From contig JAWMAR010001283.1 in assembly GCA_036785375.1 (NCBI GenBank), positions 1 through 64,000 on the forward strand: a stretch of 64,000 bases of DNA. Reading direction: 5' to 3'. This DNA is from Leucoraja ocellata (taxonomy: Eukaryota). Under the pieces are notes generated by a model. The model did no database searches and was not told the origin of the DNA. It saw nothing but the letters and a program-made list of their open reading frames with translations. Within the stretch, counting starts at the first letter, position 1, and every line of letters begins with the position of its first letter. Shown piece after piece: positions 32,201 through 62,687 of this stretch. Made by a program: the position numbers and the translations under genes.

Positions 32201-32213
32201 GATGCAATATGTA

Positions 32214-34964: not shown

Positions 34965-35186
<222 letters not shown>

Positions 35187-38556: not shown

Positions 38557-38928
<372 letters not shown>

Positions 38929-41179: not shown

Positions 41180-41405
41180 CAGGTGTTCCCAACCTATTTC
41201 ATCCCATTTATCCCTGGCAACTTTAATAGCACATAACAATGTTATTTCACTTATTTATGAACAACTAATGATGAACAGATACCGGTATACCAAACACAGT
41301 CAGTCAATGAGGGAAAATATGTACAAATCCGGAATCAACAAATTTACCCCCTGGGTAGGCGAAATTTACCCCCCTGGGGGTAAATATACCCCAGGTTGGG
41401 AACCC
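41180..41405. mobile_element. hAT/Charlie-like MITE in the putative DEPDC5 3' UTR
   Basis: TIRs CAGGTGTTCCCAACCT / AGGTTGGGAACCC; TTGTAAAT duplicated at 41172-41179 and 41406-41413. Confidence 0.75.
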
Positions 41406-41457
41406 TTGTAAATGGAAACCTGCATCATTGACTCTTTCTCAGCGCTACATAATTTGC

Positions 41458-41470
41458 ATTAAAAAATAAA
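41458..41470 (+). terminator. Putative DEPDC5 polyadenylation signals (ATTAAA and AATAAA)
   Basis: ATTAAA at 41458-41463 and AATAAA at 41465-41470, followed by U/GU-rich ttgttttattttgtt. Confidence 0.6.
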
Positions 41471-41499
41471 AAGAGAAAATAGTCCTTGTTTTATTTTGT

Positions 41500-41631
41500 T
41501 TAAGAAGGAACTACACAGATGCTGGAAAACCGAAGGTAGACAAAAATGCTGGAGAAACTCAGCGGGTGAGGCAGCATATATGGAGCGAAGGAATAGGTGA
41601 CGTTTCGGGTCGAGAGCTTTCTTCAGACTGA
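41500..41631 (-). mobile_element. PLE terminal-repeat copy with hammerhead-like core
   Basis: Reverse complement: cagtCTGAAGAaagctctcgacccGAAAcgTCacctattcc... Confidence 0.75.
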
Positions 41632-41870
41632 GGGAGAGGTTACTGTCTTGACACCATGATACTAAGTTCTCTATCTCCTTCCAGTACTCCATTTTATCGT
41701 TGTTCCTGCTTCGGCCAACCACAGTGATGTCGTCTGCAAACAAACGTATGGGGAATCAGTCGAAATTGGCCGTACATTCGTGTGTGGATGGAGTATAGTG
41801 CGGGACTGAGAACACATCCCCGCAGGGTACCAGAGAATTGTAATGGAAGAGATGTTCTCACCCCACCTCT
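41632..41870 (-). mobile_element. Rex/L2-type LINE RT fragment
   Basis: FADDITVVG...EYWKEIENLVSWCQDSNLSL. Confidence 0.7.
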
Positions 41871-42479
41871 ATCTAAATCTAATCCCTGTTATACCTGTGG
41901 CTACAAATAAATCATGCGCAGGGAGTGTTACTCTGTTTCAAACTTGCGGTATCCATGCTCTAGAGAGCCAGTCTAGGCAGAATTAATTTGTTTCCACACT
42001 TCGAGTGTGGACGAAATTCAAAAATGCAGATACATGTGCTGCAAAGTATAAATTACCCGATCTCGACCTCGTTGCATCTTATTTCGACCCGCATTTCCTC
42101 TGTAGCTGTGTCTGCGCAGCTATATTCTGCACACAGTTTATTTTCTCTTGTGCACTGAGTGACTGGTAACATTTGCCTGGAGATAGCACGCAAAGCAAAG
42201 TCCCCCCCACAGTTTCCCCATACACGAAAAAAAACAGCACGACACATGAAAGAAGGATAGAAAATGCCGGGAAACACTCAGCGGGTCGGGCAGCAAGCGT
42301 GGGGGGGAGAAGCAAGTCAGGTAGCGGCCAACTGTGAGTCACATCTGTGCGGAGGGAGAGAGTGACTGGTTCCTCCTGATACTGGCCATGGAAACTGAAG
42401 TGACCTTTTGAGCGGTCACCATTTATACACACACACACATAGACCTTGCATCTAAATGTCCCGCTTCACCTTTTCACCC

Positions 42480-42730
42480 ACTCCGCAGGTCGGGTTGATC
42501 TAAAGTTGTTCAGTGCCGCTGTTTACAATTTTCCTTGGAGGGAAGGGGACGGGAGAGGGGGAGAGGGGGAGGGGGTTGACAACGCGCTGACGGACCGTGG
42601 ATGATCCCCAGGGGTTGGCGCTCTGGCGAGTCCGCCGCGGTCACCCCGCCAGCCCCCGGTGAGTCCGCCTTACACCCGCTAGCGGGGTTGAGAAACCATC
42701 CACGAGGCCGGCGGCCGGGCAGGAAGGGCT
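42480..42730 (+). promoter_or_regulatory. CpG-rich promoter and non-coding exon 1 of the ANHX-like gene (donor after 42658)
   Basis: Local CpG enrichment, G-tracts at 42538-42576, consensus donor CCG|gtgagt. Confidence 0.6.
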
Positions 42731-42739
42731 GATCCCTCC

Positions 42740-43460
42740 CTCCATCCTCCCCCTTCCCCTCAGACCCTCCACCCATTACACCCTCCACCATTCCCTCCTT
42801 TACGCCCACACGATCCCCTCACACCCTCCCTCCACCCACCATCGCCAGCAACATCCTCCCACGTTCCTTGTTGCTTCACATCCTCGCTCCAACCCTTCCC
42901 TTCCTCACACCCTCCCCTCTTCCCTTCCCCCAACACCAACCACTCTCTCCTCCTCCCCTCACACTTTCCCTCCACTCTCCCTCACAACCTCACTCCCTCA
43001 ATCTTTCCATTCTTTTCCCCCTCACATTCTAAAATCCGTCACTCATTTGAACCGTTACGCTCCCACCCTCCCTCACTCCTCATCTCCCTCACAACCTCAC
43101 ACATTCCCTCGCACCCAGTCCTCAGTCACTCCATTTCTCCCTCACCTACACGGTCATCTTCCTCTTCCTTCCCCCTCCCCTACATCTCCCTATTACCTCT
43201 CACAGTCATTCCTCAATCTCACTCCTCTGCCCTTTCTTCTCCTCCTCACCATCTACCTCCCCTCCACCTTTCTGTCCCTCTTTGCTCCTACTCTTCCTTC
43301 CCCCTTCCTCACTCCCTCTCCCCCTCCTCTGCCCCTCCATCTCCCCTCCCTCCCTCATGCTGCTCCTTCCTCACCCCTCACCCCATCCCCCTCACCACTT
43401 CCTCCTCATCACCTCCTCCTCACCCTCCCATCTCCTCCCCTCCCTCGCCCCCCTCCTGGT
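42740..43460 (+). repeat. ~700-bp C/T-rich low-complexity tract
   Basis: Almost purely pyrimidine (with some A) on the + strand. Confidence 0.9.
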
Positions 43461-43568
43461 TTCACACACTGGGCTGTCAGTTGGCCCAGTGAGGAGGTGG
43501 GCCGAGGTTCACTGGCTCTTGTTCCCTGGTTCCAGGAGCCGATTGAAGTGTGAAGAGAGGCCGAGAGG

Positions 43569-43682
43569 ATGGAGGGGAGTCAGAGTCGGCGAGGAGCTCC
43601 AGACACGGCTGAGCAACTGCGAGCGGAGGTCAGGGAGCTGCTGAGGAGGCAGGAGTACGACAGAGCCTCTGCCCTGCTGGAG
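43569..43682 (+). CDS. ANHX: ANHX-like coding exon 1 (MEGSQSRRGAPDTAEQLRAEVRELLRRQEYDRASALLE)
   Basis: Acceptor ttccag| (exon starts 43536), in-frame upstream TGA, strong Kozak AGGATGG, GAG|gtaaac donor; aligns with the ANHX ...QQQAACRLLE helix. Confidence 0.75.
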
Positions 43683-44547
43683 GTAAACCAGCCCGTGACT
43701 GCCCCTCCCCACTGCCCTCCATCCCATCCCACTACATTCTCATCCCACTACATTCCCATCCCACTGCCCGTCATATCATTGACCCTCCCCTTCAACTGAC
43801 CTCTGCCCGCTCCTCTCTTGCTGATCACTGTGCCCATCCTATTGACCACTATGCCCCCACCTCTTCCACTGGCCACCAGACCCCAGTTTCCCACTGAACA
43901 CTGGGCCATCCCCTCGCACTGACCACCAGACACTGCCCCCCCCCCCCCCCCTCCCCTCCCACCGACCTCTGGCAACTCCCAATTCTTACACCTCCATGTG
44001 CTTGATGTTTTCCTCTCCACAGACACTACCTCATCTGCTTTCTGTTTTCATTTCAAGCTCTCAGCCTATGCATTTTGTTTTGATTTCCCAGTGTAATTTC
44101 TATGTCTATGCTGGGATCAGTAGTCCCCTGGCTGCAGGGTAATCATTGTAGCCCAGTTTTGACCTTCCTCAAAGACTGCAGCCGTGTGCCATGGAGATGG
44201 TTGACTGTGGTGAAGTGTGTGAGGTAGGACTAATTCCTCTGGCACTGCGGCTAATTGCAGGAGTATACCCTCATTCACATCTTGTGTAGAAAGTATCGAC
44301 GTGCAAATCACTTGCTGCACAGCTGTGTGGCAGCTTTCATGAGAAAGTGCAACCTCTACACATATCTTCCAATTATCCGCCAACTTCACCAGAGGCCTAT
44401 GTCCTGGTGCCCTGTATCCTGTGCAGTCTCACCTGCATAGTCCCAGATATATTCACTTTAACTATTTTGCCATTGTGTATTCTTGTTCTAGGAGTTGCCG
44501 CTAGACTCTGCACTCGGAGACAATAGTTGGGTCCATCAGTTATGGTC

Positions 44548-46280
44548 AAAGTTATGCAGCATGGAAACAGGCCCGTCATCCCAGCCAAGATGCCCATTTA
44601 CACCATCCCTATTTGCTCACGTTTGACCAGCATCTCTCAAAACCTTTCCTATCTAAATACCTTTGAAATGTTGTATCTACATCAACCATTTCCTTAGGCA
44701 GCTCGTTCCACATACATTAGACGCTCTATGTGGAAAAAGTCCCTAATATACTTTATCTTCTCACATTAAAGCTATGCCTTTTAGTTCTTCATTTTCCAGT
44801 CCTGGGAAAAAGACAGTGCATTCATCGTATCTATGCCCTTCCTGATATTGAACACCTCTATACGATCACACCTCCACCTCTGATGCTCCAAGGAATCAAG
44901 TCCAAGCTTTCTCAACTTCTCTTTTTAACACCATCCATCGAGTCCTGGAAAGATCCTGGTAAATCTTTTCAGTCCGTCAATCAGTCAGTCAGTTTTATTT
45001 CCTTCGCTCCATAGATGCTGCTGCACCCGCTGAGTTTCTCCAGCTTTTTTGTGTACAGTCAGTTTTATTCGTCACATTGCACATAAAGTGCAAGTGAAAT
45101 GAATTTGTCAGCAGCGGTACAATGATAAAGAACACACAATACACAATAAAAATTTAACACAAACACCCACCACAGCATTCATCACGGTGGTGGAAGGCAC
45201 AAAATTTGGTCAGTCCTCCTCCAATTCCCCCCGTGTTCGGGACCAGAGTCAGTCCAGGATCGGCTCTTCCTCACCGGAGACCGCGGCTTTAGGTTGGTGT
45301 AGGCCGCAGGCCGGCGGTCGAAGATTTAAAGTCCCCGCCGCAGCCAGAAGCATTCTGCACTTTCCAGCTTAATTATATCTTTCTTATAGCAGGGTGACCT
45401 AAACTGGACACAATATTAAAAATGTGGCTTCCCAAAGGTCTTGTAATATAACATCCCAACTTCTACACTCATTGTGTGAGAAGAAACCGCAGATGCTGGT
45501 TTAAACTGAAGATAGACAAACATCTGGACAGGCAGCATCTCTGGAGAGAAGGAATGGGTGACGTTTCGGGTCTGAGGAATGGTCTTGACCCTAAACGTCA
45601 ACCATTCCTTCTCTCCAGAGATGCTGCCTGACCCGCTGAGTTACTCCAGCTTTTTGTGTCTACTGTACTCATTGTCCTTACTGATGAAGGCTAGTGTGCC
45701 AAAAGCCTTCCTCGCCTGTCCACCTGTGACTCCACTTTCAGGGAATTAAATATCTGCACTCCTAATTCCCTCGGTTCCACAACACATCTTTCATTGTGAG
45801 AGTCCTACCCTGGTTTGATTTCCCAAATGCAACACCTTACCTGAATTAAATTCTATTCGCCATTCTTGAACCCACATCCTCAGCAGATCAAGACCCCTCT
45901 GCAATTCTAGATAACCCTCGTCACTGTCTATGATACCACCTAATTTAGTATTATCTGCAAATTTACTAACCACATCTTGCACATTCACATCCAAATCATT
46001 GATATAGATGAGAAATAACAATGGGCCCAGGACTGATTCATGTGGCACATCACTAGTCACAGGCCTCCAGTCTGAAAAACAACCTTCTACCATCACCTTC
46101 TGCTTCTTACAATCAAGCCATTTATGTATCCAATTCAGTAACTCTCCCTGGATTCTATCTGATCTAACCTTCCAGTGTAAAGTACCATGAGGAATCTCAT
46201 CAAAAGCCTTGCTGGAATCCACATGGACCACGTCTCCTGCATTGCCCTCATTGACTTTCTTTGTTACTTCTTCAGAAACC
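44548..46280 (-). mobile_element. CR1 LINE RT fragment carrying three nested insertions
   Basis: ORF 45791-46282: DxSKAFDEIPH...SVLGPLLFLIYINDL...KFADNTKLGG. Confidence 0.88.
45476..45666. mobile_element. Inverted PLE terminal-repeat pair with TSD
   Basis: ~38-bp inverted arms (caggcagcatctctggagagaaggaatgg...); ACTCATTGT duplicated at 45467-45475 and 45667-45675. Confidence 0.75.
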
Positions 46281-46430
46281 AAAGTTACTATAAGGAATTG
46301 AATTGAGAGATTGCTGCAATGAGGCAGAATACAGGTGTTAGACTGTAAATAACTCCCAGAACATTGTGCGACTGTGGTGAGGGGGTAGGGAAGAAATCTT
46401 GTGTGTTACATCATGCATTTTTCACATTAG

Positions 46431-46555
46431 ACCTGCAGGATTAAAGAGAAGGATGTGGTCAGATCTCTGTGGTATGAAGTCCAATACATGAAACTGAAAG
46501 AACAGCTTGGAAAGAGCAAGTTGACTGCAGTGCAGCGTTTCCGCTGCAGAAAGAG
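46431..46555 (+). CDS. ANHX: ANHX-like coding exon 2, SIX-domain C-half (TCRIKEKDVVRSLWYEVQYMKLKEQLGKSKLTAVQRFRCRKR)
   Basis: attag| acceptor, AG|gtacgc donor; matches ANHX LWNDIHY...LTPVQKFRCRKR and SIX LW..AHY...LGAVGKYRVRRK. Confidence 0.88.
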
Positions 46556-46797
46556 GTACGCAAGGAGATTTTAACCTGCCTGGCCGCACCCAGAGCACAA
46601 TAACAGGCAGGCAGATCTGCCGAGACAAGAGACTGCACTTGCTGGAACCTGGAGCAACGATCTGCTGGAGGAACACAGTGGGTCGAGCAGCATCTGAGGG
46701 TGGAAAGGAATGCTCGACATAGCTCGAGTGAGTTTGTTGACCATTCCCTCCTCCCACTTTCCCTACTGATGCTGTTCGAGCTACTAAGTTTCACCAC

Positions 46798-47102
46798 AGG
46801 CAGCACAGTGGTGCAGCGGTAGAGTTGCTGCCTTACATTGCCAGAGACCTGGGTTCGAACCTAACCATGAGTGCTGTCTGTACAGAGTTTGTACGTTCTC
46901 CCTCCACATGGGTTTTCTCCGGGTGCACCAGTTTCTTCCCACACTCCAAATCCATAAAGTTTTTTAGGTTAATTGGCTTAGAAAAATTGTAAATTGTCCC
47001 AAGTGTGTAGGATAGTGTTAGTGTACTTGGATCGCTGGTCGGCACGGACTCGATGGGCTGAAGGGCCTGTTTCCGCACATAATCTCCAAAACTAAAAACT
47101 AA
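46798..47102 (+). mobile_element. Full-length V-SINE (HE1-like)
   Basis: A-box (tggtgcagcgg), B-box (gggttcgaacc), V core and tail. Confidence 0.85.
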
Positions 47103-48054
47103 GCAGCGTATTGAAGCAGATGTGCCTAGATGTCCCTTCACAGCACAGCTGTGACGCACCAGCAGATGTTGCTTCAATCGGTGGCCACAGGCTACTCCCA
47201 TGGCTGGAAATTCACCGGCAGCATTCATGTTCCCCAATGTGACGTAGCAAAATTCGTCACGAGTGGGGCAACAACAGCATTTCACACCATGTGGCAGATT
47301 GAGACGTGCTCTGCCAGTCTGGTCCCACGCAGACTGTCCCCATGTCAGCATGTGGGAGGACTGGAGAATTGTGGTCGAATGTGGACCACACCGTCCCAAA
47401 GAAGGTCACCGAGAGAGACAATCCTGGATAACCAGGATTCCCTGGGTCACGGTTCAATGTTACTTTATGTAATTTACTTCAAGATGTCAGTGAGGTCCCG
47501 ACCCTCTGCATTAACCCCCCCCCCCCAAATTCCCCACAATTATCAGGCAGCTCATGACCTCACCCCTGACTCCCTCACTACAATTCCCGATTTCCTCTCT
47601 CTGCCTTCTCAATGAAGGTTCCTCTACCTGCAATAGCAATATACCAGTTCCCACCTATTTCCCGAGCCCACTCCCATACAACAAGCCCCTGTTCCTGTTT
47701 TAATTGCCCCTCTGCTAACCTGTCTGGTAAGACCCCGACCCACATCTCGAGACTGCCTTGCACCTTCCTCAACCACTTTGTCTGGCAGCTTGTTCCAGTT
47801 ACTCACCATCCTCTGTGTGGAAAAAGTTGCCCCTTGGGTCTAGTTCAAACCTTCCTATTCTCACCTTAAATCTAAGCCCTCTAGTTTTAGATTCCCCTAA
47901 CATGGAAAAAAGATTGCAACCATTCACCTTATCTGTCCCCTTCGTGATTTATATACCTCCATAATATCACTGCGAGAGTGAAGGTGAGGTACATGATGAA
48001 GGACATCTTTGGGTGCCCAATAGGTCTAACAACGGTGCTTCATGTACCTTCCAG

Positions 48055-48178
48055 GAACCTGCTGCCCCGCTCTCTGCGTGTGGAGGAATTCAAGACCAGG
48101 ACCCTGCCTCGGGAGGCCAGAGAACAGCTACAAGCCTGGACCAGAGGAAACAGTGCAAGCCCTAGTATGGCAGAGCGG
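48055..48178 (+). CDS. ANHX: ANHX-like coding exon 3, homeodomain N-half (NLLPRSLRVEEFKTRTLPREAREQLQAWTRGNSASPSMAER)
   Basis: ttccag| acceptor, CGG|gtaagg donor; aligns with ANHX NPPPPSL...KSRNFPREVREKL...NPSKAER. Confidence 0.88.
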
Positions 48179-49108
48179 GTAAGGAGAGCCCTGATTAGTA
48201 CGGATGTCATAGGTTATGAGGAGAAGGCAGGAGAATGGGGTTAGGAGGGAGGGATAGATCAGCCATAATTGAATGGGGTAGTAAACTTGATGGGCCGAAT
48301 GGCCTAATTCTGCTTCAATCACATGATCATATGATCTGTGTGACCACGACAGGACACTGCAGCCTATGAATTCATTCTAATGAGGAATCAGTGAGGTATA
48401 ATAACCATGGCAACCAGTCTGCACATAGCAGGCTCTTACAAAAGCAGATTTTATTCTAATTGTTAACGTGGGTGGAACCAGGGAGAAGCAGGGGTGAATC
48501 CCATCTCTCCTATGCCCTCCATTCAAGGTGCACACTAATTTCTATCATCATCCCATCAATCTCCCCCCCCCCTCCCCCTCCCCTGTCCCCTTCCACCTAT
48601 ATTCCTGCCTCTGACTTTACATTTCACTCCAACTTTTACGTATTTCTTTGTGTTGTCTTTTCATCTCTAGCCTTTCTTCAGCCATTTGCCAATCAACCTC
48701 CCCCCCCCCCCACCCCCCCGGCCCGTATCCCCACCTCTTTGTCAATTTCCTCCACTCGCCACAATCAGTCTGAAAAAGGGTCCCAACACAAAATGTCACC
48801 ATCCACGCCCTTCAGGAATGCTTCCTGACCCACCGAGTCACTCCAGTACTTTGCACTTTGTTCAAGATTTCAGCGTCTGCAGTTCATTGTGTCCTATTTT
48901 CCTATTTTCTCGCGTTTTTTTGTTTGAGTCTGCTCTTGTGGTCCACTAGGTGAGTGGCTCCTGGTGTCGAGTGGTGTTTGGGTGTATGGAGAATGAGTGG
49001 AATGAATCTGTCTTGTGTTCCCGCTCCCTGAGCCAGAACGTTGGCAGCGACATACAGGTCCCACCCTAAGACTTGGTGAAACCCTGACCGGCCCGTATCT
49101 CTCTACAG

Positions 49109-49304
49109 GAGAAGCTGATGGAGGAGACCGGTCTGAATAAGCAACAGATCTGCAACTGGTTTGCAAATTACAGGAGAAAACTCAAGAAAGCCGCCAGCCA
49201 GCAAGAGAGTGTTGGAGAGTTAAATCAGAGCCCGGGATGTCCCCAACATTCGATGAGAAGTCCGCTGATCACTGTCGGGGGCAGCGGCAGGCCGCCTGTC
49301 TCAG
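49109..49304 (+). CDS. ANHX: ANHX-like coding exon 4, homeodomain helices 2-3 (EKLMEETGLNKQQICNWFANYRRKLKK...)
   Basis: ctacag| acceptor, G|gtaact donor; WFANYRR is the ANHX recognition-helix signature. Confidence 0.9.
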
Positions 49305-49439
49305 GTAACTCCGCAACTCTAACATTCGCTATGAATATGTTCTCTCTCCCGGTTCATTCCCCACTTCCGGCTTTTTCTCGGTTTATTTCCCACTGATCCC
49401 CATGTTCTGATCCCCCTGGTTCATTGCCTGGTTTTCATT

Positions 49440-49750
49440 TGATTTGCCACTGCTAGGACTGTGTGCACCAGTTCTAACCCATCCCCTTCCATCGATGCCG
49501 CATTCCCAATCAGGACCTCTCCCCTGGTGGATTCCCCATTCCCAACCTTCCCTTGTTCCTGGATGATCCCCCATTCCCGACCTTCCCTTGTTCCTGTAGG
49601 ATTCCCCATTCACAACCTGCCTTTCTCCTGCTGGATGAGCCATTCCCAAAATTCCCTCTCCCTTGGTAGATTTCCCATTCCACACCTTCTCACTCTGGTG
49701 GAATCCCATTCCCCACCTTCCTTGGCTGCTCTGAATTCTCCATTCCAACA
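49440..49750. repeat. Degenerate ~30-bp minisatellite (ttccccattccca-ccttcccttg-tcctgg)
   Basis: About 9 recurrences of cccattcc at roughly 30-bp spacing. Confidence 0.65.
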
Positions 49751-50142
49751 ATCCCTCCTAAACAAAACACAGAATGCTGGAGTAACTCAATGGGTTAGGC
49801 AGCATCTCTGGAGAGCTGATATTTCAGTTTGGGACTATTCTTCAGATGGAGGGCCCTGACTTGAATCATCAACTTCTTCATGTATCCCAGAGATGCTGCC
49901 TGACCCACAAACTTTGTATTAAAAAAAAACCCAGCATCTGCAGTTCCTTGTGTCCACATGTTCCTTCTCAATTCCCAACCTAGATTTAGGTATATTATCA
50001 CATTACCGAGATACAGTGTAAAGCTTGGCTTTGCACATTATCCAAGCATATGAGATATACTATACCTAAAAACAATTGTCAAACTTAAGTACAGCAAATA
50101 GAGTAATGGGGAATAAACAGAGTGCAGGATATAGTTCTCATC

Positions 50143-50339
50143 TTCTTCATCTTCTTTTCGTGTCCATCTTGTTACAAATGTTGGCCTCGCTGTCATCGCT
50201 CGTCCTGAAAAGGACGCAAGCTTCCGGCGACAATCAGTGGGACCCATCGCCTGTCACATTAGATGATGGTGGTAGCAGAATTAGCTCAGGATACTTCCAG
50301 TTTCCAGCCCCGCGACGTGGATGCTTCGGCTATGGGGCC
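50143..50339 (-). mobile_element. Short non-LTR (RTE-like) insertion with (GAA)-rich tail, nested in a Rex/L2 fragment
   Basis: AGTTCTCATC duplicated at 50133-50142 and 50340-50349; CpG retained. Confidence 0.65.
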
Positions 50340-51704
50340 AGTTCTCATCGTTTAAGTGCATCAGTTCCACAGACAAAGTCCAACGTCCACAATCGTACAG
50401 TATCCTAGTTTATGGAAGGACCATTCAGAAGTCCGATAACAGAGGAGAAGAAACTTATTCCTGAGTTTGGTGGTGCACACTTTCAAGCTTCTGCACCTTC
50501 TGCCAGACAGGAGCAGGAAGAAGGAATGACTGGGTGGGACAAGTCTTTGGTTATGTTGGCTGCTCTTCTGAGCCAGTGTAAAATGTAGATGGAATCAATG
50601 GTGGGAAGTCTAGTCTGGGTGATGGACTGGGTCACCTTTGTGTAATTTTCCCTGCTCCCTTTAACTTCACCCAGTTCACACCCCCACATTCACTTTATCC
50701 TCACCAGGAGCCCTTTTCCTGCTCTGTCTTTAAACTCTCCAGTTCCCATTCCCACGCTTGCTTTAACCTCACTGGAATCCTGTACCCATGCTCCCTTTGA
50801 CCTCACTGGGATCCTGTTCTGACACTTCCTTTCACCTGCATTAAAAAAATAAACTCAAAGTGGTGTATTGAGGAGTAATATTCTATACTCCAGAAAATCT
50901 GGTGGCGCAAAAGGCTGGAATCTGGAGCAGAAAAAAACAAAGTGCTGGGGAAGCTCAATGGGTCAGGCAGCATCTGTGGAGGGAAATGAACAGGGTGGGA
51001 GCTTTCTTCAAGACTTCCATTCACCAGTCCCAACGCTATTGGATATTGGGGGTTTTATGGTCTATGTATTTCCCTACAAAGGGAGATCGGACTAAAGCAT
51101 CGTGTACCAGATGTAGTGTCACCAGGACTCCATGTAATTGAGCAGATGTCTCTACTGAAACTCTTTTGCAGTGTTTGTAATTGCTAATTGGTTGCTATAC
51201 CTCTATTCAACGCATTCAACGAGGCTTTCAAAACAAGTTTGAACCTTGAATTCATATCTACAGCTTTGAATCTAACCACACGCTGAATAAAAATTCTTCC
51301 TGGAGTCACCACTGGTTCTTTGGCCAATCACCTTAATCCGTCACTTCTCACTATCTTGAGTCTTTTTTTCCTGCATTTTGATTGTTTTAACAGCTCCATC
51401 CAATCTCATCCCTCCAATCTCTCTTCCAGGAAAACCACGTCCCTCACATTATTGTGCAGAGTGCCTGGCGACCTTGCCTGCCCATTCAGCTACCTGTTAT
51501 CCCCCTGCTCATTGAATCATCCACCTTGGTGTTATTCACAAACTGCTCAATGCTTCAGCGAGTTTAAAGGGAGCATGGGTGCAGAGCTCCTGCAGGTTTG
51601 AATTAGTACTTGCTGTAGCAAGTCCATTTCACCTTCTTATCTGTTTGGGCACTCCCTTAATGACTTATTTCCACTCCAGTTCTGTGGCTTCTGAAGAGTC
51701 TGAT

Positions 51705-51841
51705 CTTCTTCTTGTGTATGGCGTGCACAGCCTAAAGTTGTAGGACAACTTGTTCTATTTGATCTTACTTGATTGTGCTCGCCAAGTTGATTGCATTCAT
51801 CGAAACAGGGCGGACCACATGAAGGTTGCAATCTCCACCCC
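51705..51841 (-). mobile_element. Second copy of the ~137-bp (GAA)n-tailed SINE-like element
   Basis: High identity to 14615-14752 over its full length. Confidence 0.7.
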
Positions 51842-52493
51842 AAGTGACTGATGAGGGTCCCACAGACTCTGCCACAGATAGATTCAGTCAGAGAGAGATA
51901 CAGCACGGAAACATACAATTTGGCCCACCGAGTCCGTGCTGAGAATCAACAACCCATTTACAGTCATCTTAAACTAATCACATTTTTGTTATTCTACTCA
52001 CATTTTCATCAACTCCCCCGGAGTCAACCTACACACTTTACAGCAGCCAATTAACCTACCCACCCATGCCTCGTTTGGGATGTGCACCATGCTGTCACAG
52101 GGAGAATATACAAACTACACACACAACATCTGAGGTCGTGATTGAACCCTAGTCTCTGGCACAATCAGGCAGTGGCTCTACCAGCTGCCTCATCCGTGCT
52201 GGACAGTTTATAAGAAACCCCTGTTCTTTTTGCTATTTGTGCAGGGCTTTAGTGTGGTCCTGGTCCCAGGAATCAAGATCTCATTGCCTTCGTGGCAGCT
52301 GCTTATTCACCGTGAGTGGCCGTGGGCCAGAAATCACCAAGGGTCACTGGCGATGATTGAACTTTTGCCCCATCTGCCCAGTAGTCTCTAACCAAGATGA
52401 ACGAGGGAACACAATCCCATCCGGTGTCAAACTTGGAGGCACCATGGTCTGTAATGTGTAACTCTCTGAGCTGTGCTTTTCAGACTGGCAGGA

Positions 52494-52553
52494 CCTGGGT
52501 CCCAGCCACCCTGTCTATGGGGTACCCCATAGACAGGGTGGCTGGGACCCAGG
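52494..52553. repeat. Perfect 60-bp palindrome with no spacer
   Basis: cctgggtcccagccaccctgtctatggggt|accccatagacagggtggctgggacccagg; the two 30-bp arms are exact reverse complements. Confidence 0.97.
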
Positions 52554-54678
52554 CCACAAGCTCCCTGCACAAGCTCGCTCAACTTTTTTGTTGAAGTGTG
52601 GTTACTGGGAAAAAAGCCAGATTATCCTTGGCACGGTCCCACAAGAACACAGCCAGTTAAATCATCTGTCATGCAGTGATAATGGCTGAGACGTGAATCT
52701 CGGGCAGCAGAGTTGTGCAGCAGGTAGTGCTGCTGCCTCACAGCTCCACAGACCCAGGTTGGACCCTGAGCTCAGGTTCCTGTCTTGTGTGTTAAGTTTG
52801 CACGTTCTCACTGGGTCTTCTCCCATGTGCTCCGGGTTCCTGGTAGGTTCGCTGGCCACTGTAAACTCAGTGCACTGAAATGCCAAATGAATCAAAGGGG
52901 AATTAGTGGGCATGTGTGTGGGATTGTGCCCCTGGATGCTGGCAGGCTTCAATCACGCAGAAGTGGCAGCCTGAACTGTGCCCAAGTCTGTGGGCTGTGC
53001 CAACTGTGTAAACCTGGCACCGAGCACAGCTGAAGTGATGATTCCTATCCACACTAGGCTGCCCGCTCACTGCCCTGTTGGCTCATTTAGGAATAGATCT
53101 GGGTTGTGTGGGAAGCTGTGGACTGTTTTGCTTTGGCACTGTAAAGACTGGTGGCTTGCAAAAACTGTGCCTTAGCATCATATAGCACAGAAACAGACCC
53201 AGTGGCCAATCTTATAGATGCCAACCAAGATGCCCCATCTACACTGGTCCCACCTGCCCGCGTTGGCCCATATCTCTCTAAACTTTTCCTGTGTGTTCAA
53301 TAAAACCAGAGTATTTCTGTAAACTGTTATGTATAAGGCTCTGTTCTTTCCCCAGATAACTATACTGCCGAGCATTTTGAATGGATTAAAAGTGAACCAC
53401 AAACTAGCATGATGGACTACACAGCTGCCACAAGACCAGGACTGTACATCCCACAGTAAGCGACCCAAGCCTTTGTGAATAGCTTAATGTCAGCGATTGA
53501 GAGGGGAAGACGGAGAAACTGTGTCTATCCATAGCAGCGGGTGATGAGGCAACTATTTCCTTCCTGTTGGGTGAGGGTCACCTCTTTGGACCCACCTTCC
53601 CTTTGAACAGACCATGTTGAATCACCTTACTGCTAAATGCCAAGCCAGATCTTAATTTCAGTTGAAGGGAGTGATTAGGATGAGATGTGTATTCAATGGC
53701 CAGTTAGATAATATCTCAAGTTAAGATATTGGCTGTTTGAGAAGTCTTCTTGGTTTTTTTTTTCATGCTAAAGGTTGGGCAGAAAACTCAACTTTGGCCA
53801 GTTCCCCACTGATACCTCCCTCCAACAGTCTGACTCTATCTCAGTTGCTGCCTGCTATCCTTTCTCAGTGGCACAGTTGGTAGAGCCACTGCCTCTCTGC
53901 GCTGGAGGCCCAGGTTCAATCCTGTTCTCCGGCATGTTTTCTGGAAGCTCCGGTTTCATTCCAAAAACATTTGGGTTGTTGGTTAATTGCCTACTGTATA
54001 TTGGCCCCTGGAGTGTAGGTGAGTGGTAGAGTCTGGGGGGAATGTGGTGGGAATGCCGGGAAACTTAAAATGTAGGATTGGTGTAAATGGTCAGCATGGA
54101 CTCGACGGGCCAAAGGGCCTCTTTCCACACTATATCTGTCTGTGAATATGTGACAGTGACTGGGACTGGGCACACGGAGCGTGAGAGAGAGATTGAGAGA
54201 TGGTGGGAACTTGAACTGAATTTTCTGTAATCAGTCTGTGATCCGTAGTACCAGACCCGGCAAAATGTGTCTCTTAGCTTCAACATTTCCGAAATTGCTA
54301 CCTTTTTCTCGCAGCCTCTTTGGGGGGAGGTTTTTGGGTTTCTCTCCTTTGTGTGAAGCTTTCAGGTGAAGTGGGAGACTGGGGGGGGGGGGGGGGGGGG
54401 GGGGGAGGACTATTCTGTGTGTTTTTGTGACTGATGCGAGTGTCTTGTTTGATGACCAGGTGTTGTACCACAGGACCACCCTCCCACCAGCTCTTCCTGC
54501 CTGAGACCGACCCTGCCACCTTGCTGAACGCAGCCTCGGGTTACTGGTGCCAGTCGGCGGAAGCATCCCACAGCCTCGCCCAGCCGCACGTGCCCCTCTG
54601 CCCCTGCATGTCGCTGGCCGTGAAACTTGCACAGGCCCCGCCGTTGATGGTCACCTCCCAGCCGGCCTTTCCCCACAG

Positions 54679-55029
54679 GACTCTTCGAGACAACTCTCTG
54701 GTCCAGCGGGCAGTTTGAGAGCGCAGCAGCCCTCGAGCAGTTCTACCCGAGTCAAGATATCCTCCGTCAAGGCAGCTGGAGTCTATGCAACAGGGGCCAG
54801 TTGTCACCACATGATGCCAGCCCATTCCACCCGTTCAGTAACCTCTTCCTCACTAACATGCAGCAGTCGGACGTCAGAGAACTCCTGAGGGAGGAAATGG
54901 TTAATGGCAGCTATCTGCACATGATGTGCCCGGATATTGGCAATACCAACCAGATACTGCTGGACGGGAGCACTAAGGGGGATTCCAGCTGGCCAGGGCT
55001 ATTGCCCAGTAGTGCCAGCCATTACCAAG
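54679..55029 (+). CDS. ANHX: ANHX-like putative coding exon 5 (GLFETTLWSSGQFES...LPSSASHYQ)
   Basis: cctttccccacag| acceptor, AAG|gtaagg donor; 351 nt open, phase 1-1, GC-rich. No recognised homology. Confidence 0.6.
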
Positions 55030-56464
55030 GTAAGGACAGGATAGATGTTGGTCTCATGGACTCTTTGGTAAAGGTATTGATTGAGGCGAAGGTGAACAAC
55101 CCCAGTCGATGCTGGACTATTGTCATCTCAGTCAGTAGAGCACAATAGGGCTTCAACAGGTGAATCTCCGCCCCACACTCTCCAACCTTGCACCCACTTG
55201 CCTCTTCTCTCTGCAGAACCTAATTCAATGGTAGCAGCACCATCATGGATGGTACAATTGAAACGTTTTAGAAACATCAGGACTAGAAGCATCTTCTCTG
55301 CCATTCAAGGGAATCGTGGTTGATCTTTTATTGCTGCACCACTTCCTTGCACTAACACCATGTCCATCCATCCCCATAATATATAAACATCAATCCATCC
55401 CTTCCTTCCACATCGTCAGTGACTGAGCTTCCACGCCCCTCAGTGTAGAATCTAATGTTACAGCTACAAAGTGCAGATAAAAGAAAGAGTGCATGTACTG
55501 CATGAGGTAGATTGAGGGATCGGGAAAACACAAGAACAAAATGTGCTGGATGTACTCGGCAGCTGGAAGCTACATCTGCGGTGGGAGAACAGTCCGTTTC
55601 AGGTCAGTCGCCCTTCCCCGGTCTTAAGATGCATGTGGCTGGGTGGAAGGTCAACTGTCGAGAGGTTAAATATTTGAGCAACTCAGTGATGGAGGGGATG
55701 AAGGAGCAAATCAGTGGACATTTGGCCAATACAGAAACATGCAGCCCTAGAGGAGGAGACCGTCGGGAGTGTAAAGGCAAGTGGGGTCCAGGCAGATCAA
55801 CATGGTCAGGGAGTAGATAGATCAGCCACGGAGATGAGACTGACTGACCCTTGTACCAAGCTCCAGTTCATTGCTGAAGCCAAGTCTCTGCGGCAAGAAC
55901 CAACTAAAACAAAGGCAGGAGGGGGCCCTTTCAGCCCCTCAAGCCTGCCCTCTACTAAATGACCATGAGCAGGAGCCTTGACTATCGCTATCAGCAGTGT
56001 GTCTGCCCTCTGTGAGACTGATGGAGCAGAATAGTTGGTAGTAACTAGTGATCTCTGGCACCATCGCACCTCATCCACATTGTTGGAAATATCTTTATTA
56101 ATTGTACTCCCACCCCTATCCTGAGCATCCTCAACCGTCATAAATGTTGATTCCGGATATACTTGTGTGAGGGTGACAATTGTTCTGCGTGTTTGGTCCA
56201 TCAGCTCCTTTACTCGATGGAAGATTCCTTGCACCTGGAGGGTTTCCTGAAGAGAGTGAGGCAGGGACTGAGGGAATGCCGCTCTGTGTAGATGGAGATG
56301 GAGCCGGGAGCTACAGAGGAGGTAGAGTGTGAGAATCTTTGTGTTCCCGTTTTATCTTTCAAAGTAATTTCCATGTCCACATAGAACACTATGATTGGAA
56401 CAGCCCTTTGCTATTGATGGAAGATCTGAATCGATTAGTCTCCTTCATTGGTCATACAGTCAGA

Positions 56465-57290
56465 TCACATGGAAACAGGCCCTTCGGCCCACTTGCCCTG
56501 GCCTATCAAGATGCCCCATCTACCCCATCTACATTAGTCCCACCTGCCCCTGCCTGGCCCATATCCCTCTAAACCTTTCCTATCCATGGTACCCTGCCTG
56601 TTCAGGCACTGAGCCTCATGGATCATGTTTTTCCCACTAGTTTTAGACGCCACTGCTATTGGAAAAGACTGTGGCTATTCACCTTATCTGTGCCCTTCAT
56701 GACTTTATAAACCTTTATAAAGACACCCCTTAGCCAGTGAAAAAAGACCCAGTCTAGCCAACCTCTCCTTATAACTCCATATCCAGAAACATCCTCGTAA
56801 TGTGTTTCTACACCCTTTCCAAGTTCATGACATCCTTCCATTAGTAGGGCAACCAGAACTGTACATGGTACGTCAAATGTGGCCTGACCTATATCTTGTA
56901 CATCTGCAACTGGTCCCAACTCCTGCATTGACCAACAAAGGTAAGCATCCATATACAGCTTCTTCAAGTCCTTGTCTACCTGCGTCACTACTTTCATGGG
57001 ATTATGTACCTACACACCCAGGTCTCTCTGTCCCACAACACTCCCTAGGCCCCTGCCATTTACTGTGCGAGTCCTGTCTGCTTTGTCTTGCCAAAACACA
57101 ACATCTCACGTTTATCTGAATTAAATTCCTTCTACCATTCCTCGGCCAATTGGCCCAGATGATCGAGATCCCTTTCTAATGTAAGATAACCTTCTTCCCT
57201 ATCCACTACACCACCAATTTTAGTGTCATCTGTAAACTTACGAACCATGCTGCTTACACTCACATCCATTTGTTAACATAAATAATGGAT
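56465..57290 (-). mobile_element. Degraded CR1 LINE 3' fragment
   Basis: KFTDDTKIGG RT remnant plus C-terminal CR1 motifs and tail. Confidence 0.75.
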
Positions 57291-57648
57291 CCAATACCTG
57301 TAACTATGAACCTCTGGTGAACAGATTGTGATGCCTAGAATTTGACCTCCTACCCTCAGGATATAGAAATCGATGTGTGATGCAAAGCCAAGCCTTTGCA
57401 GTGAAAGTGATGTCCCCGCGCCCGTCACTGCTTAGACTCCTCAGAGCTGAGCTCGCCTTTAGTTCCCCACCAGGGATGATATTGTAGTAAGCTCAGACTG
57501 TGGAGAGCGTCGGAGCTAAACCTTCCTCCTCTCACCCTGATGGACTCTTAATGCAAAAGCCATCAGATTCAGGCTGGTGACCTCACTCCCAATGATGAAT
57601 GAGTTCAGGGGTCCCGAGGCTAATTATGGCACCTCGAATAGTTTTCCA

Positions 57649-57960
57649 CGGGCAGTCACGGTGGTGTAGCGGTGGAGTTGCTGCCTTACAGCGAATGCAG
57701 CGCCGGAGACCCGGGTTCGATCCCGATTGCGGGTGCTGTCTGTACGGAGTTTGTACGTTCTCCCCGTGACCTGCGTGGGATTTCTCCGAGATCTTCGGTT
57801 TCCTCCCACATTCCAAAGACGTACAGGTTTGTAGGTTAATTGACTTGGTAAATGTAAAAATTGTCCCTGGTGAGTGTAGGATAGTGTTAATGTGCGGGGA
57901 TCGCTGGTCAGCCGGCCAAAGGGCCTGTTTCCGTGCTGTATCTCTAAACTAAAAAAAAAA
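57649..57960 (+). mobile_element. Full-length young V-SINE (HE1-like)
   Basis: A-box (tggtgtagcgg), B-box (gggttcgatccc), V core, CpG retained, tail ctctaaact(a)n. Confidence 0.88.
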
Positions 57961-58218
57961 TGAGCTGAGCTGAGACCTGTTACATGAATGCAGGGTGAGA
58001 ATAGAAACCTGTCAATGGTTCAGTGCAACTTTCACCAAATAATGCAGAAACAGCTTTTACTGGCTGGTATTTGATGAGCGATGAACGTAACACAAGGGCC
58101 AGAGGGTTTATTCTACTGGGCTGTGCAATGGTTTATTTTTCTATTGTGTATACCATGGATGTGGTAGTTAACTCTGATCATTGGATGACTGATTGCCCCT
58201 ATGTAACACTTTACGCAG

Positions 58219-58300
58219 GTTTAAACCAGCCATCACAAGCAACCTTTGGAGAATGCAGTCCACAAAGCAACGTTGATGGTGTGAAGATAGATTGCAGGAG
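58219..58300 (+). CDS. ANHX: ANHX-like putative coding exon 6 (GLNQPSQATFGECSPQSNVDGVKIDCRR)
   Basis: ttacgcag| acceptor, strong GAG|gtaaga donor; phases 1 to 2 fit the model. Confidence 0.5.
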
Positions 58301-59111
58301 GTAAGATGGGGTTGAGGACAGAGGAAGGCATGGAGCATCTTTGAATTTGTTTTTCTGTGGATTACTTTATTGAAGTGAAAAATGTGATTTTAATTAATAT
58401 ATTTCATTCTCAAAAGATATATTTTTTAATACAAGTGGAGAAGTAGAGATGAAGTCACTAGGTCACTCTTCACTCACCATATCCATCACTGAAACTTGCC
58501 TCCTTGAGTCTGCTCTGCCATTCAGTGAGATCACTTTCTTGCTTGTTTCCCACAACAGGGTGGTACTGAACCTAATCTTCGGTCTTGAAGAAGGTCTTGG
58601 GAGACGGGGCAGGGATCTGTGCTGGTGCCTTGGAAGCTGTGAATCAATATGACCTTAACCTCTCAGGTGGGAGCAGTCCAGGAACAAGGCAACCTACACA
58701 GATATCAGCCAACACAGATATACCTCTCTGCTGCTCAGGTGCTGATTGAATTGTTTTGTGTTTAAATGACACTCGTTAAGGAGTCGGCCTTCTTCCTGGA
58801 AGTTTCTTCACATTGTACTGCTCATCTCCTTCCTATTCACCCTGTATATTCATCTAACAAAAGCGACACATCAGGTGGCGTTGCTGAGCTCTGTCCCAGT
58901 GAGGCCGGCTGACGCCATTCATTCATTCAGTCAGCATTTTTATTCCGTCACGCTCTTCATAAACTCTCTCTTGTCTGCTTCCATCAAGACTTCTGGTGTT
59001 TAAAGTACCGAGCCAGTTCAGCACACTGTCATCTTACTCTCATTTTATAGAGAATGGGTGAAATTTCAGGGAGCAGTAACTATTTGTCTTGTTTTTCTGT
59101 TGTGTTCGCAG

Positions 59112-59166
59112 GCTGACGTACGTAAAGGTTGAGACGGAAGTGTGGTGCCATCCCCAACACAGCCAG
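59112..59166 (+). CDS. ANHX: ANHX-like putative coding exon 7 (LTYVKVETEVWCHPQHSQ)
   Basis: Long pyrimidine-rich acceptor (ttgtttttctgttgtgttcgcag|) and CAG|gtccgt donor; phases 2 to 0 fit the model. Confidence 0.45.
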
Positions 59167-60326
59167 GTCCGTGTATAAGCTCAACTCTCCCCCCACTCCG
59201 TGATGTTGCCTACTTCAGACGCTGTAGTTTTCACGTCACGAGCTGGACACAGAGGCAAGCTCTTCCCATTATAAACCCTATTAGATCCTGCACTCCATTA
59301 ATAAAACTCCTCATTATTCCAAAAAATCTCCAACCTAGTTTCTTGACCTTACACTGCCTTAAATCACGAGATCTACCTCCTCCCTCCTCACCTTGAAACA
59401 GGTGCAGAGCGCCTGGGCTTTTTTTGCCACAAACTTCAGACCTGTTCGTCCAGCTGCCTCTGTGCTCTCTCCCTTTATCTCACCCCAAGATCGCCCCCAA
59501 AATACCCTTCTGCATTTGCTATGAACTCCTCTCTTCTTTCTCTTTAACCCCATGAGGCACCCCCATCTCCCTATACCCTACTGCCACAAACTTTATGCCA
59601 AGAAACTTCTGCCCCTGTCCTATCTGTTCCATTCCTCATACCAAATCCCTCAGCCCCAGCTAAGCATTTTTGGTTTAATTTATCTCCTAATGTGAGAGTC
59701 CCCACTGTTAATTAATGTACTGAGTTGTGGTTGAATTGGTCGAACTGCTGCTCCCGGAATCAGGAAACTGTTTGTTCACATCCCGCTCCAAAGACTTGAG
59801 AACAGACGATACGCTCTCTCTGGTCAGCACTGAAGGCCTGTCGAAGTAGGTGTCTTTAACATCAGAAGAGTGGTGGAGTTTGTTTGATGTCCCAGACAAT
59901 ATTTCCATGTTGACCAGACAAACGAAGCAGACTTACCGAGCGGTGTTTGCTCGTTCTCCCTTTGACCCCGTGGGATTCCCCCAGACATGCCAGTTTCCTC
60001 CAATATCCCAAAGACATGTGAGTTCACAGGTCATTTGGCCACTGTGTGTAGTTGAATGGTACAATCTGGGGAGAGCTGATTGGAATGAGGGCAGAATCAT
60101 ATGGAATCAATGAAGCAGTGGAATAAATGCAAGCTTAATGGTTGGCACGAACTCAATGGGCTGAAGGGCCTGTTTCCATGCTGTACGACTCTATGACATT
60201 GAGGGTGGGCTGGTTTGTGATCCCTGCTGATACCCACTGTTGCTCTGCATAGCTGGAATTGACCCACACAGGGACTGATGTGGGTCAGTGACATGCAGAA
60301 TGATGTTCCTGTTCTGTGTCTTCCAG

Positions 60327-60455
60327 GTTCAGCAGGACACTAAACTGGACATAGCAGCACAGGCCCTGATCCAGCTCTCCCAGATACCCATCGGCAGCCT
60401 TTCAACACCGGACGGCACTGCTTCCACAGAGTGCCAGAGAACATGGGAGCCGTAA
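60327..60455 (+). CDS. ANHX: ANHX-like putative terminal coding exon (VQQDTKLDIAAQALIQLSQ...RTWEP*)
   Basis: gttctgtgtcttccag| acceptor; open in phase 0 to TAA; amphipathic AAQALIQLS motif. Confidence 0.5.
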   Translation, partial: VQQDTKLDIAAQALIQLSQIPIGSLSTPDGTASTECQRTWEP

Positions 60456-62681: not shown

Positions 62682-62687
62682 AATAAA
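62682..62687 (+). terminator. Putative poly(A) signal of the ANHX-like gene
   Basis: AATAAA preceded by AU-rich sequence and followed by GU-rich gtgtggttttg. Confidence 0.45.

Follow-up and report, generated by a model that had tools for sequence, protein, structure and literature searches.

A candidate ANHX orthologue in Leucoraja ocellata and its resemblance to invertebrate Six-X proteins

Organisation of the ANHX locus

The window analysed here is a 64,000-nucleotide stretch of the Leucoraja ocellata genome (GenBank assembly GCA_036785375.1, contig JAWMAR010001283.1, positions 1 to 64,000). It carries on its + strand a multi-exon gene encoding a partial SIX domain, a homeodomain and a long, low-complexity tail that ends in an amphipathic AxxALxxL motif (Table 1). 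DEPDC5 is located directly upstream of this gene on the same strand. The four core exons, which are bounded by GT-AG sites with phases 0/2/0/1 as originally proposed, are real and encode an orthologue of ANHX (anomalous homeobox, LOC647589; the human locus is 12q24.33). All the peptide motifs quoted in the original prediction (8/8) are found on the + strand where it had placed them, and each of exons 1-4 matches an uncharacterized protein of the electric ray Narcine bancroftii better than 500/500 shuffles. At the 5' end, an in-frame TGA at 43551-43553 closes the reading frame upstream of the ATG, and the CpG observed/expected ratio is 0.68-0.97 across 42251-43250.

Table 1. Features of the ANHX gene in the window
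Feature	Position	Strand	Basis or remark
Probable non-coding first exon	42580..42658	+	Inferred; donor after 42658; CpG-rich stretch; start uncertain
5' UTR part of coding exon 1	43536..43568	+	Acceptor score 6.8
Coding exon 1: start Met, SIX-domain helices 3-4 only	43569..43682	+	65% identity to Narcine 37-70
Coding exon 2: SIX-domain helices 5-6, Arg-rich helix 6 motif	46431..46555	+	Narcine and SIX1_SD matches
Coding exon 3: linker, homeodomain helix 1, loop with one extra residue	48055..48178	+	Shuffle test, alignment
Coding exon 4: homeodomain helices 2-3, WFANYRR (A50, N51, R53, R54)	49109..49304	+	Homeobox_KN
Exon 5a, absent from the earlier model, phase 1 to phase 2	53356..53455	+	Colinear with Narcine 211-239
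Exon 5b, 570 nt	54460..55029	+	Two halves match Narcine in different frames
Frame switch (within about 54665-54686) and premature TGA (54716-54718)	54665..54718	+	Sequence, Narcine alignment
Two internal acceptors rejoining the downstream frame	54662, 54679	+	Percentiles 88 and 98
Exon 6	58219..58300	+	Colinear with Narcine 406-434; donor at 99.6th percentile
Exon 7 (tentative)	59112..59166	+	Phase and splice sites only
Exon 8, last coding exon, AxxALxxL(S) motif at 60354-60380	60327..60455	+	Conserved family motif
First AATAAA/ATTAAA-type signal past the stop codon, possible 3' end	62682..62687	+	Inferred

Protein and profile searches agree with the assignment. Exon 2 alone retrieves the Narcine protein at E 1.7e-11 with 74% identity and matches the SIX1_SD profile at E 1e-4, a score that falls short of the curated cut-off; exon 4 matches Homeobox_KN at E 2e-8. 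Over the 158 residues compared, the spliced protein is 67% identical to the Narcine protein; used as a query, it scores 115 bits against the named ANHX of the lizard Hemicordylus capensis versus 53-55 bits against four named SIX5 proteins. With the Narcine protein as the query, the lizard ANHX is found at 4e-26 and SIX5 at 5e-4. In the Atlas, the Narcine core (0.93) and an invertebrate Six-X-type core (0.92) both have 'ANHX protein' as their top cluster. The window protein and the named lizard ANHX have identical WFANYRR recognition helices and helix-6 motifs, and share the +1 homeodomain loop, the SIX-plus-homeodomain layout and a C-terminal AxxLxxL-type motif.

The original prediction held that the exon structure is more fragmented than that of SIX1-6. 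The three introns within the SIX domain and homeodomain are real; they look like a general ANHX trait, not something peculiar to this fish. In other ANHX-type sequences, 22 of 29 internal ends of partial hits fall within 2 columns of these introns (about 10% expected), a likeness read from hit boundaries, in which non-independent fragment ends serve as a proxy for gene structures. SINE/SIX class genes have few introns.

Downstream of the core, the eight-exon model drawn originally does yield an open 391-aa frame, and, scored with a rough weight matrix, 11/14 of its splice sites exceed the 95th percentile for GT/AG sites across the window. Its tail, however, is incomplete: homology to Narcine also spans 54464-54664 in another frame, and by omitting this coding sequence the model hides a frameshift. 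The added exon 5a has an acceptor at the 99.5th percentile of window sites, its protein similarity by itself being weak (28/500 shuffles as good). The two halves of exon 5b each match Narcine in their different frames with 0/500 shuffles as good, and to fit the flanking phases the exon would have to lose one base (mod 3). The stretch where the frame switches contains a C4 run and, compared with Narcine, about 7 additional codons, and the premature TGA halts the full-length form at residue 305, ahead of the C-terminal motif. Two in-frame acceptors are predicted to bypass the frameshift: use of 54662 after exon 5a would give a 430 aa form, and use of 54679 after exon 4 would give the 391 aa form of the original model. 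Taken by itself, exon 6 is non-significant against Narcine (71/500 shuffles as good), and the same comparison gives no support for exon 7 (240/500) or exon 8 (326/500).

The exon-5b frameshift reflects an error in the assembly or else a young lesion. A decaying ANHX pseudogene in the lineage, or a truncated allele targeted by NMD, could account for the frameshift, whose stop lies upstream of three more junctions, as well as for the absence of SIX-domain helices 1-2 and the in-frame stop ahead of the start codon; ANHX is reportedly lost in mouse and rat (PMC3141429), and no annotated protein from the same genome was returned in the exon-2 protein search. We consider this improbable, given that exons 1-4 are intact and close to Narcine, which itself shares the N-terminal truncation, and that exon 5b differs from Narcine by five in-frame gaps and a single frame hop, both matching halves being free of stops. 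Furthermore, exon 8 retains its motif, a homopolymer run lies within the break and in-frame bypass acceptors exist. That the gene is live or very recently damaged, with the frameshift being an assembly indel or bypassed by splicing, is the reading we hold with good confidence.

A truncated SIX domain and an atypical homeodomain

The original prediction overlooked that SIX-domain helices 1-2, among them the EYA-binding helix, have been lost; helices 3-6 are present. Relative to the class norm of about 115-120 aa, this leaves the C-terminal two thirds of the domain. A search for a remnant of helices 1-2 in six frames of 39600-43682 found none (398/1000 shuffles as good). The Narcine protein is truncated in the same way, its model aligning to SIX1 from chain residue 416, at about SIX1 residue 46. 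The two batoid proteins share the core and are colinear in the tail up to exon 6; the Narcine protein, which is not named ANHX, differs in that its exon 5b is open, its model has about 30 more N-terminal residues and the one isoform seen lacks the exon-8 motif. Other ANHX rows typically have a complete SIX domain. In SIX1, SIX-domain helix 1 is the binding site of EYA2, and modelling puts helix 6 in the major groove (PMC4901127). Because helix 1 is absent, the window protein very probably could not use the EYA co-activator in the manner of SIX1.

The homeodomain comprises 61 residues, with A50 and R54. Position 50 thus carries not the lysine of the SINE/SIX class (PMC6125248) but one of the I/A/G residues by which TALE homeodomains are recognised (PMC5322547), alanine being the residue in IRO and MKX (PMC4901127). 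The three-residue TALE loop extension is absent, and the window protein has a single extra residue. This +1 loop is found in 20/20 ANHX-clade rows, the window protein included; Six-X rows have +3 in 21/24 cases and +1 in 3/24, and 44/44 K50 SIX rows have no extension. Neither the ETSY/QKTH/ETVY tetrapeptide nor the W-x-G-E linker of SIX proteins is present in the window protein, which does combine a SIX domain with WFAN, the feature pair of Six-X. The PxxSxCP linker, seen in 18/18 other ANHX rows, 19/24 Six-X rows and 0/44 SIX rows, has been lost in the window and Narcine proteins (0/2).

Phylogenetic analysis places the window protein in an ANHX clade supported at 99/99 in an 89-row tree and 100/100 in a 44-row tree, and by the SIX domain (100/97) and the homeodomain (100/99) taken singly; one row of this clade is a named ANHX (lizard), and the rest are unnamed. 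A 100/100 branch has all K50 SIX rows on one side (single domains 100/99 and 99/97). The trees are unrooted, have long branches and contain no TALE outgroup. In agreement with the bit scores and homeodomain features, they identify the gene as ANHX, neither a canonical SIX nor a TALE gene, and its membership of the ANHX clade is in our view highly likely. The window protein is sister to Narcine (100/99, 68% identity), a pairing in keeping with a batoid host; the 44-row tree nests the batoids, with weak support, among the other ANHX rows. The batoid pair therefore dates ANHX at least to the jawed-vertebrate ancestor, as originally predicted. ANHX was first reported only in placental mammals, as absent from chicken and frog, and was left outside all homeobox classes (PMC3141429); it was later annotated in reptiles (the lizard protein in our search results), and a cartilaginous-fish orthologue shifts its origin back from placental mammals. 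In a search of chiefly open-access literature we found no paper linking ANHX to cartilaginous fish or to Six-X; genome-annotation or orthology databases may already label fish ANHX. Compared with other ANHX, the window protein stands out by its missing SIX-domain helices 1-2 and PPPxSLCP linker, its long branch and the exon-5b frameshift.

Relationship to Six-X proteins

What ANHX most resembles is a set of invertebrate proteins that combine a SIX domain with a TALE homeodomain. These Six-X-type proteins, an unclassified family, occur in the jellyfish Craspedacusta (csSix-X, PMC3340352), Hydractinia, the coral Stylophora, the amphioxus Branchiostoma and the scallop Mizuhopecten, and calcisponge SIX/TALE hybrids may be relatives (PMC4083861). 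They have a SIX domain followed by a WFAN-type homeodomain, R54, a W-x-E-x-H-Y helix 5 and the C-terminal motif; the linker, A50/R54 and C-terminal AxxALxxL motif are common to ANHX and Six-X. Unlike the window protein, most Six-X proteins have a SIX domain that is complete and retain all three residues of the TALE loop, with PYP. Each domain taken separately, 20/20 ANHX-clade rows prefer Six-X over K50 SIX profiles.

In the last 35 aa, the strict C-terminal motif occurs in 8/16 ANHX (0.3 expected), 6/30 Six-X (0.2) and 0/22 SIX proteins, the motif having been defined after examples had been viewed. When trained on Six-X proteins alone, it scores exon 8 as the best of 40 test tails (19.5 bits, 0/200 shuffles) and only 3/16 ANHX tails at p<=0.02. 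It is absent from the one Narcine isoform seen and from 8/16 ANHX tails. A comparable C-terminal stretch in two named SIX5 proteins (p 0.03-0.06) means that the motif is not strictly confined to this family, and its effect may be activation instead of repression. The C-terminus of SIX4/5 is an activation region.

We think it rather likely that ANHX is the vertebrate line of the old Six-X family, with only one of the three TALE loop residues left. An unrooted split leaves ANHX and Six-X on one side at 98/92 and 100/100, and a clade of ANHX with amphioxus Six-X is not rejected (p 0.16). The rather unlikely alternative is that the two are separate lineages which kept ancestral TALE-like states or attract each other as long branches, with ANHX branching near the base of the SIX class. 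A50 and the loop residues may indeed be ancestral, the Six-X sequences were gathered with an ANHX-built profile, the unrooted trees show only that K50 SIX rows lie on one side of a branch, and the 89-row tree has a Six-X group without ANHX at 98/83; yet separate lineages would mean that all invertebrates lost the ANHX line and vertebrates lost Six-X, and sit poorly with the common linker and C-terminal motif, the Six-X rows with a +1 loop and the amphioxus result. Highly improbable, in our estimate, is an origin of ANHX within the vertebrate K50 SIX genes by fast evolution. SIX1 is the top PDB match by structure and sequence (4EGC; helices 3-6 and homeodomain, Z 10.7, rmsd 11.2, 127 residues aligned, Narcine model), one paper groups ANHX with SIX1 and SIX6 (PMC5928047) and the SIX5 tails are faintly similar, but ANHX with SIX4/5 or with SIX1/2 is rejected (AU p=0.0025, a test of nesting that covered these two groups), all K50 SIX rows stand apart, and the window protein lacks the K50, 60-residue homeodomain, family tetrapeptides, linker and EYA-binding helix of that class. 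The gene had been called SIX-derived, a wording that these results do not sustain. TALE proteins of the IRX/MKX/TGIF type share the small residue at position 50 and R54, and TGIF1 is the best homeodomain-only PDB hit; the TALE loop, PYP and lack of a SIX domain set them apart. A spiralian PADRE-domain TALE gene was also considered and rejected, since the published PADRE alignment, inspected by eye, is without SIX-domain motifs.

If ANHX does belong with Six-X, an orphan human gene would gain a family, several 'unclassifiable' invertebrate genes would be united, and an origin of the SIX class from TALE-like ancestors would become testable with living intermediates. We give even chances to a broader scenario, in which ANHX is what survives in vertebrates of a fourth SIX-domain homeobox family, one that pre-dates the cnidarian-bilaterian split and is perhaps as old as sponges, a living intermediate between TALE and SINE; a C-terminal Sin3-type repression helix and a gonad or germline role would have been kept from jellyfish to humans, and rays would have pared the protein to an EYA-independent form.

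Possible function in the germline

Judging from its domains, the window protein could act as an EYA-independent, TALE-like DNA-binding factor that recruits Sin3/HDAC. DNA would be contacted through homeodomain helix 3 and SIX-domain helix 6, as modelled for SIX1, and the specificity is likely to be IRX/MKX/TGIF-like rather than that of K50 SIX proteins. The C-terminal helix may dock on a Sin3 PAH domain and bring in HDAC1/2, making the protein mainly a repressor, a possibility that we place just short of even. By pattern, the motif matches the Sin3-interaction face of Tet1 (A893/I894/A896/L897/L900, PMC6168491); the A-x-x-A-L-x-x-L hydrophobic face resembles the Tet1/Sap25 Sin3-interaction domain (PAH1), such motifs recurring by convergence. 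That the same helix instead recruits a co-activator and switches germline genes on seems somewhat unlikely: the rise of reproductive and meiotic genes on overexpression of human ANHX (PMC11850904) and the weak motif score of the SIX4/5 C-terminal region would suit it, but the small/small/large/large spacing fits the tested Tet1 face, in which Ala is tolerated at the second position (PMC6168491), and mesenchymal and cardiac genes go down under human ANHX (PMC11850904). The conserved motif offers a direct first hypothesis for how human ANHX acts.

The site of action would be the gonad or germ cells, a role that we slightly favour by analogy. In jellyfish, the gonads are one of several sites of Six-X expression (PMC3340352). 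Human oogonia express ANHX, which belongs to a set of five factors improving the induction of human oogonia-like cells; it boosts their yield and reduces off-target somatic genes (PMC11850904). On balance, a batoid ANHX orthologue with the features and mechanism proposed here is the account we prefer for the locus as a whole. The increase in germline genes under human ANHX overexpression would be explained by a pure repressor only indirectly.

ANHX identity of the window gene

The window gene is a genuine orthologue of ANHX in truncated form, carrying one frameshift, and by itself extends a known family only modestly. Each of the eight peptide motifs cited in the original prediction was found on the + strand where it had placed them, and its four core exons are bounded by GT-AG splice sites with matching phases. 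When exon 2 alone was searched against a large protein set, one candidate was returned, an uncharacterised protein of Narcine bancroftii (E 1.7e-11, 74%). Across 158 aa the spliced protein shares 67% identity with the Narcine protein; its score is 115 bits against the named ANHX of the lizard Hemicordylus capensis, as compared with 53-55 bits against four named SIX5 proteins. Pfam identifies exon 2 as SIX1_SD, below the curated cut-off (E 1e-4), and exon 4 as Homeobox_KN (E 2e-8), with no family assigned to the remaining five of the seven pieces.

A profile built from the Narcine protein and lizard ANHX retrieved 801 proteins at E<=0.001, of which the best 150 were used. Excluded from these were 14 possibly human matches, 44 rows without a usable core of SIX domain plus homeodomain and, prior to tree building, eight aberrant or redundant cores (P0004, P0005, P0025, P0036, P0081, P0131, P0138 and P0145); one more protein from this search, P0108, was additionally excluded from the profile counts. 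In the 89-row tree from the best 150 of 801, the window protein groups with Narcine (support 100/99) inside a 20-row ANHX clade (99/99, the bootstrap being not fully settled). This pairing with Narcine makes a ray or skate the probable host. The clade is recovered in a 44-row subset tree (100/100) and in the single-domain trees of the SIX domain (100/97) and the homeodomain (100/99), and the phylogeny supports the proposed ANHX identity. The two batoids nest only weakly among the remaining ANHX rows of the 44-row tree, which makes the internal order of the clade tentative. The first homeodomain loop is longer by one residue in 20/20 ANHX-clade rows and in 0/44 rows of the canonical K50 SIX proteins (SIX1/2, SIX3/6 and SIX4/5) among the best 150 of 801.

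PMC3141429 (correction: PMC3142236) describes ANHX (LOC647589) as belonging to no class, the gene occurring in several placental mammals and being absent in mouse, rat, chicken and frog; for its naming see PMC5094009 (excerpt). The homeobox class criteria we used were drawn from parts of PMC6125248, PMC2959044, PMC5322547 (with supplement), PMC6118893 and PMC8524836. Our literature search, with annotation databases outside its scope, returned neither a cartilaginous-fish ANHX nor a reported link between ANHX and the proteins that we informally call Six-X, i.e. invertebrate proteins that combine a SIX domain with a TALE-type homeodomain.

Exon structure and the frame break in exon 5b

The frame of the eight-exon, 391-aa model first proposed is open, but tblastn with the Narcine protein as query shows that the model missed homologous coding sequence. 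Splice phases and colinearity with Narcine led us to add exon 5a and to lengthen exon 5b; Narcine matches the latter at 54464-54664 in a frame differing from that of a further match at 54666-55031. With an X placed at the frame break, the revised model is colinear with Narcine residues 5 to 436. Against Narcine, each half of exon 5b outscores 500/500 shuffles, which exons 5a, 6, 7 and 8 fail to do (28, 71, 240 and 326 of 500 shuffles, respectively, are as good).

Exon 5b is 570 nt long and the flanking phases demand one base less (mod 3), so that the full form as assembled ends at residue 305. Its protein alignment contains five in-frame gaps and only one frame hop, which argues for a frame constraint of long standing followed by a break that is recent or artefactual. 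Internal acceptors at 54662 and 54679 restore the downstream frame, the latter being the one taken by the 391-aa model. Exon 5a encodes an I-K-x-E stretch (53379-53393), which we take to fit the SUMO consensus; Narcine carries Glu at the Lys position. A near-perfect inverted repeat, detected as a self-match, occupies 52493-52553 in the intron preceding exon 5a.

SIX1-6 have few introns. The introns underlying the predicted fragmented exon structure are real in the window; that this structure is peculiar to the fish is doubtful, since among 19 other ANHX-type matches, mostly partial, 22/29 internal ends (which are not independent) lie no more than two columns from one of the three core introns of the window gene, with ~10% expected. 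As indirect evidence, this suggests that fragmentation may be an ANHX trait.

The ATG is preceded, six codons upstream, by an in-frame stop. A search of all six frames from the end of DEPDC5 to the ATG recovered nothing of SIX-domain helices 1-2, and a decayed coding remnant of these helices, suggested by eye, was rejected: 398/1000 shuffles were as good in an HMM comparison and 158/300 in a pairwise one. The AlphaFold model of the Narcine protein, rather than of the window protein, has a core with pLDDT > 90 and best matches SIX1, the alignment beginning only at about SIX1 residue 46; its tail, with pLDDT under 50, is modelled as disordered and carries no information. Within a probable non-coding first exon, an ATG (42601-42658) would open a short upstream frame if joined to 43536.

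Proposed relationship of ANHX to Six-X proteins and a possible mechanism

The profile search also yielded 24 Six-X rows with usable cores among the best 150 of 801, with named members from Craspedacusta, Hydractinia, Stylophora, Branchiostoma and Mizuhopecten. Their first homeodomain loop is +3 in 21 and +1 in three, and position 50 is Ala in 16. Craspedacusta csSix-X, with a SIX domain and an Irx-like WFAN helix, has been called unclassifiable, and is expressed in the gonads, gastric cavity and manubrium opening (PMC3340352, excerpt). On the basis of organism and features, our Craspedacusta match, which contains the RRTN tag, is taken to be csSix-X. Similar SIX/TALE hybrids were described in calcisponges (PMC4083861, excerpt). 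Reading the SIX domain of Six-X proteins as a PADRE domain was ruled out on viewing the published alignment.

ANHX had been predicted to be SIX-derived, and one table groups it under the SIX class (PMC5928047, excerpt). Placing it with SIX4/5 or with SIX1/2 is rejected by the AU test (p 0.0025 each), which speaks against the prediction, and placing it with amphioxus Six-X is not rejected (p 0.16); the trees are unrooted, with long branches and no TALE outgroup. Six-X profiles outscore K50 SIX profiles in both domains separately in 20/20 ANHX-clade rows, the Six-X matches having themselves been selected via the ANHX profile. A PxxSxCP linker is present in 18/18 other ANHX, 19/24 Six-X and 0/44 SIX rows, and is lost in both batoids.

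Beyond the aligned core, a shared motif lies within the last 35 residues of 8/16 ANHX (0.3 expected), 6/30 Six-X (0.2 expected) and 0/22 SIX tails, the stricter form of the pattern having been composed after examples were seen. With a matrix from 27 Six-X tails only, window exon 8 ranked top of 40 test tails (0/200 shuffles); at p<=0.02 the matrix detected 3/16 ANHX and 0/22 SIX tails, with both SIX5 proteins near threshold (p 0.03 and 0.06), and the motif was absent from the Narcine isoform. The C-termini of P0003 and P0006, named mammalian SIX5 proteins, weakly match the motif. Given the complementary distribution among named rows and the common linker and tail motif, orthology of ANHX and Six-X is proposed as the most economical reading of the sequences. 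Three Six-X-type proteins with an ANHX-like +1 loop (P0067, P0074 and P0079) would either be nearer ANHX relatives or indicate that two TALE loop residues were lost more than once.

SIX1 is bound by EYA2 at helix 1, and its helix 6 has been modelled in the major groove alongside homeodomain helix 3; IRO and MKX have A50 (PMC4901127, excerpt). The motif spacing equals that of the Tet1 face binding Sin3A PAH1 (PMC6168491, excerpt). What the analysis demonstrates is the parts and their conservation; we propose that the window protein would bind DNA with TALE-like specificity, using helix 6 together with an A50/N51/R54 recognition helix, that EYA recruitment in the SIX1 manner would be impossible for it, and that its C-terminal helix would recruit Sin3/HDAC. 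SIX4/5 have an activation region. Human ANHX is expressed in oogonia and, together with three other factors, upregulates germline genes and downregulates mesenchymal and cardiac genes (PMC11850904, excerpt); these data fit a germline regulator and do not settle whether it is a repressor or an activator. What makes the window gene valuable is a testable tie to an ancient family of SIX/TALE hybrids, together with a first lead on the mechanism of ANHX.

DEPDC5 and the remainder of the window

Among the candidate frames searched against Pfam, in sets of 62 and 143 (the latter out of 695 on the + strand), DEPDC5 was the sole other cellular gene. Location of the ANHX-like gene inside a DEPDC5 intron was ruled out by the end of DEPDC5 at 39640. 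Of the retroelement remnants, the one at 45717-46405 overlaps a weak minus-strand RVT_1 match (46097-46369, Pfam); the other four are presumed remnants by resemblance.

Features of the window
Feature	Coordinates	Strand	Remarks
DEPDC5 3' part	24064-39640	+	upstream of ANHX-like gene, identical strand
DEPDC5 DEP-domain exon	~24064-24168	+	
DEPDC5 C-terminal-domain exons	~27530-27780, 35010-35181, 38122-38182, 38640-38722	+	
DEPDC5 last coding exon	39345-39640	+	
ANHX-like core exons 1-4	43569-43682, 46431-46555, 48055-48178, 49109-49304	+	GT-AG, phases match
ANHX-like exon 5a	53356-53455	+	absent from earlier model
ANHX-like exon 5b	54460-55029	+	extended
Retroelement remnants (four presumed)	3611-4303, 15586-16059, 45717-46405, 55806-56351, 12406-13014		reverse-transcriptase-like frames

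A CpG-rich stretch at 6250-7250 (o/e 0.83-0.91, GC up to 0.64) has long open frames matching no Pfam family, a repeat and an internal promoter being the candidate readings. About 14% of the window is self-matching.
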